Source: Halobacteriales archaeon SW_5_70_135
Lineage (GTDB): Archaea; Halobacteriota; Halobacteria; Halobacteriales; SW-7-71-33
Assembly (NCBI GenBank): GCA_003022865.1
Contig: PXSK01000036.1
Location: 63,122 to 127,121, forward strand
Reading direction: 5' to 3'
Length of the DNA: 64,000 nucleotides
This document shows positions 13,923-14,126 of this stretch, piece after piece. Below the pieces are notes generated by a model. The model did not search any database. It saw only the letters and a program-made list of their open reading frames with translations, and was not told the origin of the DNA. Position 1 is the first letter of the stretch. Every line of letters begins with the position of its first letter. The translations under genes were made by a program, and so were the position numbers.

Positions 13923-14007
13923 CGCGTGGGTAGCCAAGCTAGGTCAACGGCGCAGCGTTGAGGGCGCTGTCCCGTAGGGGTCCGCCGGTTCGAATCCGGT
14001 CCCACGC
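13923..14007 (+). tRNA. tRNA-Leu (anticodon GAG), intact, no encoded CCA
   Basis: Hand-folded. Acceptor stem GCGUGGG/CCCACGC plus A73. Anticodon arm CAGCG-UUGAGGG-CGCUG, with anticodon at 13959-13961. Long variable arm CCCGUAGGGG. T-arm GCCGG-UUCGAAU-CCGGU. TATA-like CCTTATGT about 30 nt upstream. Confidence 0.9.
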
Positions 14008-14126
14008 ATCCTGCGGCGAGTGACGCGCGAGCCGCAGGTGCGTGCCGAGGATTCGAATCAACGAGCGGGAGGTGAGTGACCGCAGGGAGCGAACGGGAGC
14101 GAGTGAAGTTCGAATCCGGTCCCACG
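14008..14126 (+). repeat. tRNA-Leu(GAG) tail: 8-bp hairpin, degenerate T-loop copy, homologue of the 45-nt tRNA-Leu(CAA) insertion, and a perfect 20-nt duplicate of the tRNA 3' end
   Basis: GTTCGAATCCGGTCCCACGC occurs at 13987-14006 and again at 14107-14126. Blocks 14062-14078 (GAGCGGGAGGTGAGTGA) and 14086-14101 (GAGCGAACGGGAGCGA) are identical to 49179-49195 and 49209-49224. GGATTCGAATC is at 14048-14058. The hairpin is CCTGCGGC(14009-16)/GCCGCAGG(14030-37). Confidence 0.8.

Follow-up and report, generated by a model that had tools for sequence, protein, structure and literature searches.

The intact tRNA-Leu(GAG) gene of Halobacteriales archaeon SW_5_70_135 is followed by a tail that closes with a second copy of the tRNA's own 3' end, which raises the question of what this tail is and how it came to lie there. 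The window analysed here is a stretch of 64,000 nt from contig PXSK01000036.1 of this metagenome-assembled genome (hereafter G000; 70% GC, 1.77 Mb, 63% complete). An initial annotation of the window regarded the tail as a chimera assembled from two leucine tRNA loci, and offered an att-site scar, intron gain or loss, and gene conversion as possible explanations. Judged from sequence comparisons, the tail is instead one unit of a family of gene-less hairpin cassettes, each ~125 nt long, that reside behind tRNA genes across the Halobacteriales. The anatomy, family membership, structure and distribution of these cassettes, as well as their turnover between species, are described below as observed. 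The features of the locus, in window coordinates, are the following.

13924-14008, + strand: intact tRNA-Leu(GAG) (ARAGORN; Rfam RF00005, 46.4 bits)
13989-14008, + strand: arm a, the last 20 nt of tRNA-Leu(GAG), T54 to A73
14009-14128: the whole tail, one complete cassette unit
14010-14038, + strand: L1 hairpin (sequence and folds; the same hairpin type stands behind tRNAs of relatives)
14039-14057, + strand: a', an imperfect inverted copy of the tRNA 3' end, TGCGTGCCGAGGATTCGAA (sequence comparison)
14058-14108, + strand: module M, type A, holding a 17-nt block (14063-79) and a 16-nt block (14087-102) (alignment and fold)
14109-14127, + strand: distal direct copy of tRNA positions 54-72, 19/19 identical

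A search of the stretch 13800-14300 against Rfam 15 (E <= 10) returned the tRNA as its single match, and thus no curated RNA family for the tail. At gathering thresholds, the 64-kb window taken as a whole gave no Rfam match, not even this tRNA, which we ascribe to filtering. The sequence TTCGAATCCGGTCCCACGC has exactly two occurrences, at 13989-14007 and 14109-14127, where 0.02 would be expected by chance, and a search permitting up to three mismatches adds a single further match, the tRNA-Leu(CAA) locus. Position 14128 is a G, whereas the equivalent position of tRNA-Leu(GAG) is the discriminator A. An intact tRNA with a perfect 20-nt copy of its 3' end downstream had already been recognised in the initial annotation, and ARAGORN, Rfam and the exact repeat 120 nt further on all agree with that description. 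The two copies are real, although the positions given for them (13987-14006 and 14107-14126) are 1 nt too low; the 20-mers, which include the G preceding TTCGAATCCGGTCCCACGC, span 13988-14007 and 14108-14127. The locus is identical at 850 of 850 positions to a contig of a sister ENA assembly, and it is also covered by a Logan contig whose ends and length agree. Given this agreement, the GAG tail is not an assembly artefact.

Immediately past the distal tRNA-end copy, GC content falls to 52-59% over ~0.8-0.9 kb (14130-15000). The ORFs of this stretch give no Pfam matches, and an A7/T7 run is present at ~14277-14283. This lower-GC stretch could be a remnant of foreign DNA.

The layout of the locus can be written as tRNA(a) - L1 - a' (inverted) - M - a (direct). 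The 8-bp hairpin that had been noted between the two repeat copies is L1, whose stem pairs CCTGCGGC (14010-17) with GCCGCAGG (14031-38) by both sequence and fold, and whose 13-nt loop, GAGTGACGCGCGA, carries GA at both ends. L1 forms the apex of a long inverted repeat a/a', and the 3' strand of its 8-bp stem carries the inverted copy of the tRNA end further. Hairpins of the L1 type are found essentially only beside tRNAs in this genome, and they are not general intergenic elements. Within a', TGCGTG complements CACGCA and GGATTCGAA complements TTCGAATCC. What had been taken for a degenerate T-loop, GGATTCGAATC (14049-59), is instead an inverted T-loop plus T-stem 3' strand, and together with GCGTG (14040-44) it constitutes an inverted copy of the entire tRNA 3' end.

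Module M at this locus is a rod of G-C/C-G steps and tandem G.A pairs, capped by the apical hairpin CC-GCA-GG. When the tail is folded alone, L1 forms next to a rod that is closed by a'/a (-52.9 kcal/mol; z = -2.5 versus shuffled sequence), and when the tRNA's own arm is included in the fold, the hairpin a-L1-a' forms instead. The 17-nt and 16-nt blocks, which lie in a purine-rich stretch of M, are each found at the GAG and CAA loci only in the 1.77-Mb assembly, as would be anticipated from the initial annotation, in which they were recorded as common to both loci. With two loci in the assembly, and with the module standing behind tRNAs of relatives, the blocks are linked to tRNAs and do not represent low-complexity sequence scattered genome-wide. 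The accompanying statement that GCGGG cannot pair with CCGGT was too strong, given that four of the five bases do pair.

The second copy of these blocks belongs to the following features at tRNA-Leu(CAA).

49120-49250, + strand: second type-A tail in the window, fused to tRNA-Leu(CAA) (alignment with the sister contig)
49172-49230: M of the CAA locus
49231-49250: distal copy, TTCGAGTCCCGTCCCCCGCA
after 49171: deletion junction

A sister contig (ENA ERZ27230166 k119_8573), whose aligned flanks are identical to the window save one base, has tRNA-Leu(CAA) in intact form, and behind it stand L1, a', this type-A module and the direct copy in turn. The 79 nt that are absent from the window correspond to the T-stem 5' strand plus the a-L1-a' palindrome, including the tRNA 3' end. 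As a result of this loss, the variable arm of tRNA-Leu(CAA) directly abuts the module, and the locus resembles a tRNA with a 45-nt T-arm intron. In relatives and congeners, tRNA-Leu(CAA) is an ordinary intron-less gene of ~86 nt. The loss either exists as a variant in the population or reflects a collapse in the assembly. We rejected the intron reading of the CAA insert because the sister contig shows an intact gene with a normal tail. The earlier view of the GAG tail as a chimera with an intron-bearing tRNA-Leu(CAA) falls for the same reason, since the CAA 'insertion' is an ordinary tail minus 79 nt, and an origin by intron gain or loss, or from a processed copy, is contradicted by the uninterrupted tRNA-Leu(GAG).

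The arrangement seen at tRNA-Leu(GAG) recurs widely. For 11 of the 25 tRNAs of G000, the 3' end is repeated in direct orientation ~85-125 nt downstream, and an upstream copy was found for none of the 25; the trailers that we read in this genome share the same order of parts and carry several module types. An exact-pattern scan for the type-A module, with one genome taken per species, recovered it at 63 loci, 61 of them in the Halobacteriales, with Halorubrum, Halolamina, Halorhabdus, Haloferax, Halogranum, Halorientalis and Halobellus as the genera represented. The module is located behind at least 18 tRNA isoacceptors at a distance of 52-112 nt (177 nt in one tandem array) and is always flanked by inverted and direct arms of that very tRNA; tandem arrays are frequent. 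Gene conversion between the two Leu loci, which had been suggested as the origin of the tail, does not account for the same module behind this many tRNA types in many genera. In relatives, the inverted copy follows each tRNA's own T-arm, as with ATTTGAA for the T-loop TTCAAAT.

The cassette order L1 - inverted - module - direct, on the same strand behind the tRNA, was found at more than 60 loci, including 14010-14127. Across 174 distinct tRNA loci, which form a biased sample, the direct-to-direct spacing has a median of 125 nt (IQR 116-134), and the two half-units are nearly equal, with 62 nt from direct to inverted copy and 63 nt from inverted to direct copy. Of the 46 tRNAs in a complete Halorubrum genome, 13 bear a full tail and 5 more a partial one, and wherever cassettes were counted they stand behind a third to a half of the tRNA genes. 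A covariance model, R1, which describes a'-M(A)-a, matches 232 of 301 Halobacteriales genomes (~77%) and 73 of 91 genera, with up to at least 16 matches in a genome; outside the order, one genome only in a phylum-wide sample is matched, and weakly. R1 scores 84.9 bits (E = 3e-17) on G000:C36:77170-77239, which is window 14049-14118, partly by construction since this copy is in the seed, and independent copies score 57-99 bits.

Weak R1 matches (E = 1.7e-4) also occur at G014:C1:1464003-1464934, where at least 12 follow in a row with a strict 81-nt period. This is another type of tandem array (CRISPR-like or satellite) that is probably unrelated to the cassettes.

An alignment of 40 type-A copies (A3) defines the structure of the module. 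The rod is continuous. It begins with the a'/a stem, above which G-C/C-G steps of two bases take turns with G.A tandems, and it then passes through an internal loop of purines (GGGAG/GGGA) to a small hairpin at the apex, often GC-GNA-GC. Of all cells in the alignment, 93.5% are paired, versus 18-39% in a control with the pairing partners slid. Four G.A columns are invariant in 40/40 copies, and the invariance of these tandems holds on the sense strand only. Changes on both sides of a pair are seen in the arm stem, where they track the tRNA, and in the apical stem. Within the module, 27 G.T and 26 A.C mismatches were counted, and in the T-arm stems 66 G.T and 32 A.C. As a test of strand these counts are ambiguous, and the rod may act as RNA, as single-stranded DNA or as a duplex bound by protein. 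A motif of the form GAGUGA...GAGCGA had been reported three times in the window as a possible recognition structure. The conserved structure is upheld and is explained by the tandem G.A pairs of the rod, but the first instance reads GAGTGA-N5-GAGCCG and departs from the motif. Box C/D RNAs are marked by a C box (RUGAUGA), a D box (CUGA) and guide regions. The tail has GUGAGUGA/GAGCGA tandem G.A pairs, as read from its sequence, and an inspection for box C/D or K-turn features found no C/D boxes, no 3-nt bulge and no Rfam snoRNA match.

No gene was found to accompany the cassettes. The ORFs overlapping the GAG tail have no Pfam match, and among the neighbours of the tail, the recognisable genes code for a transcription regulator and a histidine kinase but for no recombinase. 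Clustering of the ORFs within ~4 kb on either side of 61 loci revealed no recurrent recombinase, and the genes that do recur are syntenic housekeeping genes only. In the Halorubrum genome with 18 tails, 0 of 4 tyrosine recombinases (PF00589) lies within 6 kb of a tRNA. Two type-A units used as queries gave no match in a phage collection, and a single match in a plasmid collection, on a Natronorubrum 828-kb replicon in an ordinary chromosomal-type gene context. An integrase gene or remnant is likewise absent at the GAG repeats, between which there are just 100 nt. Of the proposed att-site scar of an integrase, there remains an att-like direct repeat that runs from the T-loop to the 3' end (19/19 nt), but the integrase remnant was not found. 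A full-text literature search yielded no description of such cassettes, the nearest being a remark on adjacent partial tRNAs (PMC7921747), and the tail cassettes therefore seem not to have been described before as a family.

At G000:C41:6776-7824, tRNA-His is followed by ~1 kb of lower-GC DNA with a frameshifted zinc-finger/HNH endonuclease gene, beyond which come a hairpin resembling M and the tRNA-His 3' end in direct repeat. The endonuclease was considered as a general cassette partner and rejected. Of the best 30 homologues in 150 genomes, 29 are situated directly after tRNA-His, those that were checked lack the distal copy, and the weaker paralogues are mostly not linked to tRNAs. The HNH gene belongs to a conserved tRNA-His neighbourhood.

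The content of the tails changes between species. At the orthologous Leu-GAG locus within the genus, the tRNA and its upstream flank are conserved, and the number of units is one in G000, three to four in G002 and two in G003, with modules that differ; the L1-a' parts are nearly identical among the units of one genome. In the Leu-TAA arrays of Halorubrum, the differences are whole units bounded by arm a, and the arrays often terminate in a shared trailer hairpin that is probably native. At two loci (L101 and L103), the module is flipped and the arm order is unchanged. Module types reappear behind unrelated tRNAs and across genera, and type-A tails are retained at Leu-TAA and Val-TAC in many Halorubrum species. 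A comparison of near-identical strains provided no case of an empty versus a filled site, given that the sister assembly is identical at GAG; the Halorubrum metagenome contigs that were compared end inside the tail.

There is also a second class of tail, in which one or more hairpins precede a stem-loop resembling a minihelix, and this stem-loop closes with a copy of the acceptor 3' strand only (examples end ...GGTGATCTCCCTTCGCGGACATCACCCACGCA and ...GGCAAGACGGAGCGTCTTGCCCTCGCA). This class is kept at orthologous tRNAs in many genera, both at Leu-GAG (L007-L012, L018) and at Leu-CAA (L022-L050).

On the basis of the unit size, the shared modules, the arrays, the turnover, the absence of genes and the att-like direct repeat, we propose, with a probability of about one half, that the unit is an insertion, a small and non-autonomous cassette aimed at tRNA genes, where it would recombine with the segment from the T-loop to the 3' end. 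That units insert at all is itself something we infer, as are the route and the enzyme. An incoming cassette would bring a replacement 3' end such that the tRNA stays intact, and the former 3' end would remain downstream as the distal copy. Repeated insertion combined with recombination between arms could then give rise to tandem arrays, module swaps and occasional flips, and arm recombination might also explain deletions, among them the loss of 79 nt at CAA. Two routes can be envisaged. In one, the unit would be an attP-only mini-element resembling a CIME (see below) that is moved in trans by the T-loop-class tyrosine integrases of haloarchaeal integrative elements. In the other, a folded single-stranded circle would be integrated through one strand, with a-L1-a'-M forming a dumbbell whose stem copies the target. 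By analogy with known one-strand systems, the order a-L1-a'-M-a would be exactly the product expected from the second route, and a CIME-like mini-element taking the first route would have this appearance as well.

Several points nevertheless count against insertion. Among them are the results given above, with four tyrosine recombinases, all distant from tRNAs, in the Halorubrum genome with 18 tails, no match among phages, a sole plasmid match in an ordinary context, and no empty versus filled site between near-identical strains. The arms match each host tRNA, which means that movement from one tRNA to another needs re-templating or gene conversion. Species differences of whole units can equally be explained by deletion between direct repeats, and a double-stranded circle of 125 bp would be very stiff. 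Moreover, persistence at Leu-TAA and Val-TAC, as well as the invariant G.A columns, also fit a selected function.

The proposed insertion cassettes share features with several known systems. Haloarchaeal integrative elements have terminal repeats of the tRNA end of 18-42 bp, partial tRNAs have been noted right beside full copies (PMC7921747), and over several reports the direct repeats range from 14 to 43 bp (PMC7921747, PMC5861418, PMC3119063). Those elements, with their XerC/D-like and SNJ2-type integrases, also target the 3' part of the tRNA, leave the tRNA intact and have a direct repeat at the far end. They are, however, kilobases long with an integrase beside the tRNA, whereas the cassette has ~125 nt and no gene, carries an inverted copy of the target in each unit and stacks into arrays. 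CIMEs are integrase-less derivatives of integrative elements that are flanked by att sites and mobilised in trans, a concept that reportedly stems from work on Streptococcus ICESt1 and its CIMEs. The cassettes would be like CIMEs in being non-autonomous, in having att-type repeats as their bounds and in building up in tandem at one tRNA or att site. Yet CIMEs are deletion derivatives of kilobase size, whereas the cassettes are ~125 nt long, and we know of no conserved 50-nt hairpin module or inverted target copy described for CIMEs.

In the CTX-phage attP(+)/IMEX and integron attC systems, pairing between the two inverted copies of a folded single strand creates a duplex that resembles the target or serves as its partner, and exchange of one strand followed by replication leaves the order target - loop - inverted copy - rest - target. 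The inverted copies of the cassette likewise fold into a target-like duplex, as judged by folds, and the corresponding order is present at the loci. IMEX and attC employ XerCD or IntI at dif or attI sites, however, whereas the cassettes mimic the end of a tRNA gene. Archaeal BHB introns are also structured inserts linked to tRNAs, and an insert at 53/54 is what the deleted CAA locus appears to have; unlike in those cases, the GAG tRNA is complete without the insert, the CAA arrangement is a 79-nt deletion, and a BHB is neither needed nor evident. MITEs and the hairpin-ended PATEs derived from IS200/IS605 are small, gene-less, hairpin-rich and multi-copy. The cassettes are also small, gene-less and multi-copy, with the module between the inverted repeats a' and a, but unlike MITEs they have arms that vary with the host tRNA, show no target-site duplication and are located strictly behind tRNA genes. 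A bolder extension, which we regard as doubtful, is that the cassettes represent a distinct class of minimal protein-less mobile element: a ~125-nt dumbbell with a stem that duplicates its own target in double-stranded form and an internal antisense arm a' that would serve as a site-selecting guide. An enzyme of the host, or one acting in trans, would integrate this dumbbell in the form of a folded single strand, either DNA or RNA-derived.

The main rival explanation holds that the tail is a structured functional RNA, co-transcribed in the 3' trailer of the tRNA, in which L1 and the rod contribute to termination, 3' processing or stability. We consider this possible though unlikely. In variants of this idea, the acceptor/T-arm copy would act as a second tRNase Z-type site, or a' would transiently mask the 3' half of the tRNA, and the units would have spread by duplication and gene conversion. 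A trailer RNA would agree with the position of the tail, which is nearly always on the tRNA strand and directly behind the tRNA, with the strongly conserved fold and its G.A tandems that are invariant on the sense strand only, and with folding that is better than that of shuffled sequence (z = -2.5). The excess of G.T over A.C in T-arm stems (66 vs 32), the distal copy that often matches without error as far as the discriminator, the lasting presence of tails at some tRNAs, and the older-looking second tail class kept at Leu-CAA and Leu-GAG across genera point in the same direction. The module itself, however, shows nearly equal G.T and A.C counts (27 and 26), without the wobble bias expected for an RNA helix. 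Fast turnover of content among congeners, the occurrence of flipped modules, and the many tRNAs and some entire genomes without tails also argue against such an RNA, as do the pyrimidine- or T-rich stretches that are often found directly after the tRNA end.

The remaining explanations regard the tail as a by-product of other events. It might be the scar of a larger provirus or plasmid that was integrated by a tyrosine integrase and then mostly deleted, leaving attL, a little DNA and attR; the direct repeat from T-loop to 3' end resembles that of known haloarchaeal integrative elements (PMC7921747, PMC3119063). The ~0.9-kb low-GC stretch after the tail, and the 1-kb tRNA-His insert with its HNH gene, where the distal copy is preceded by an M-like hairpin, would also suit such a scar. 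We judge this origin improbable. Random deletion would not yield a tight 125-nt unit, with halves of 62 and 63 nt, at over 100 loci; nor would it place shared, conserved modules behind 18 tRNA types or an inverted target copy in every unit, and no integrase remnants lie in or near the units. Similarly slim are the prospects of a replication error that needs no dedicated machinery, in which the palindromic T-loop (TTCGAA) and stable GA mini-hairpins would prompt snap-back or a switch of template and thereby a direct-inverted-direct triplication of the tRNA end, a tandem inversion duplication. Such an order, with hairpins at the junctions, is what template switching classically produces; it is the order found here, and hairpin-mediated loss is seen at CAA, where the missing 79 nt include the a-L1-a' palindrome. 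Yet the junctions are not arbitrary but belong to conserved families of modules that recur among tRNAs and genera, the same tails follow tRNAs whose T-loop (TTCAAAT) is not palindromic, and a spread of modules between unrelated tRNAs and genomes is suggested. Thus, scars and template switching each explain parts only, with the conserved modules and the tight size left over. Barely credible, finally, is a fusion in which intron gain or loss by way of a processed copy, or gene conversion between the two Leu genes, joined the T-stem and intron of CAA to the T-loop and acceptor half of GAG. The two blocks do occur at only these two Leu loci in the genome, including the rarer GAGTGA variant, but the CAA 'intron' is a deletion artefact that congeners lack, the central hairpin and the module ends differ between the GAG and CAA loci, and the module belongs to a family found behind many tRNAs.

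If the cassettes are mobile, haloarchaeal tRNA genes would be landing pads for abundant and unrecognised gene-less elements, which would bear on tRNA-targeting recombination, on assembly breaks at tRNAs, and on misannotated 'partial tRNAs' and false 'introns' such as that of CAA. If they are trailer RNAs, they would add to tRNA processing or termination a new layer of signals that spans the order and is made of tandem G.A helices. Regardless of which reading is correct, the family is testable in the tractable genera Haloferax and Halorubrum, and the rod module offers a defined ligand for a protein partner.

Two further observations were made in G000. At C37:~13100-13330, the tRNA-Trp 3' end is doubled with 3 nt between the copies (...GGCCCCA TAG TTCAAATCCCTCCGGCCCCA) and a normal cassette is next; this doubling looks like a unit that has shrunk by deletion. 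Multi-unit arrays are also located behind a 5'-truncated tRNA-Ala(GGC) and behind a tRNA-Arg(GCG)-like sequence that is not called by ARAGORN, the sites with these impaired tRNAs being C35:65440-66000 and C18:4300-4900, which suggests that tRNA genes adjoining arrays can be damaged.
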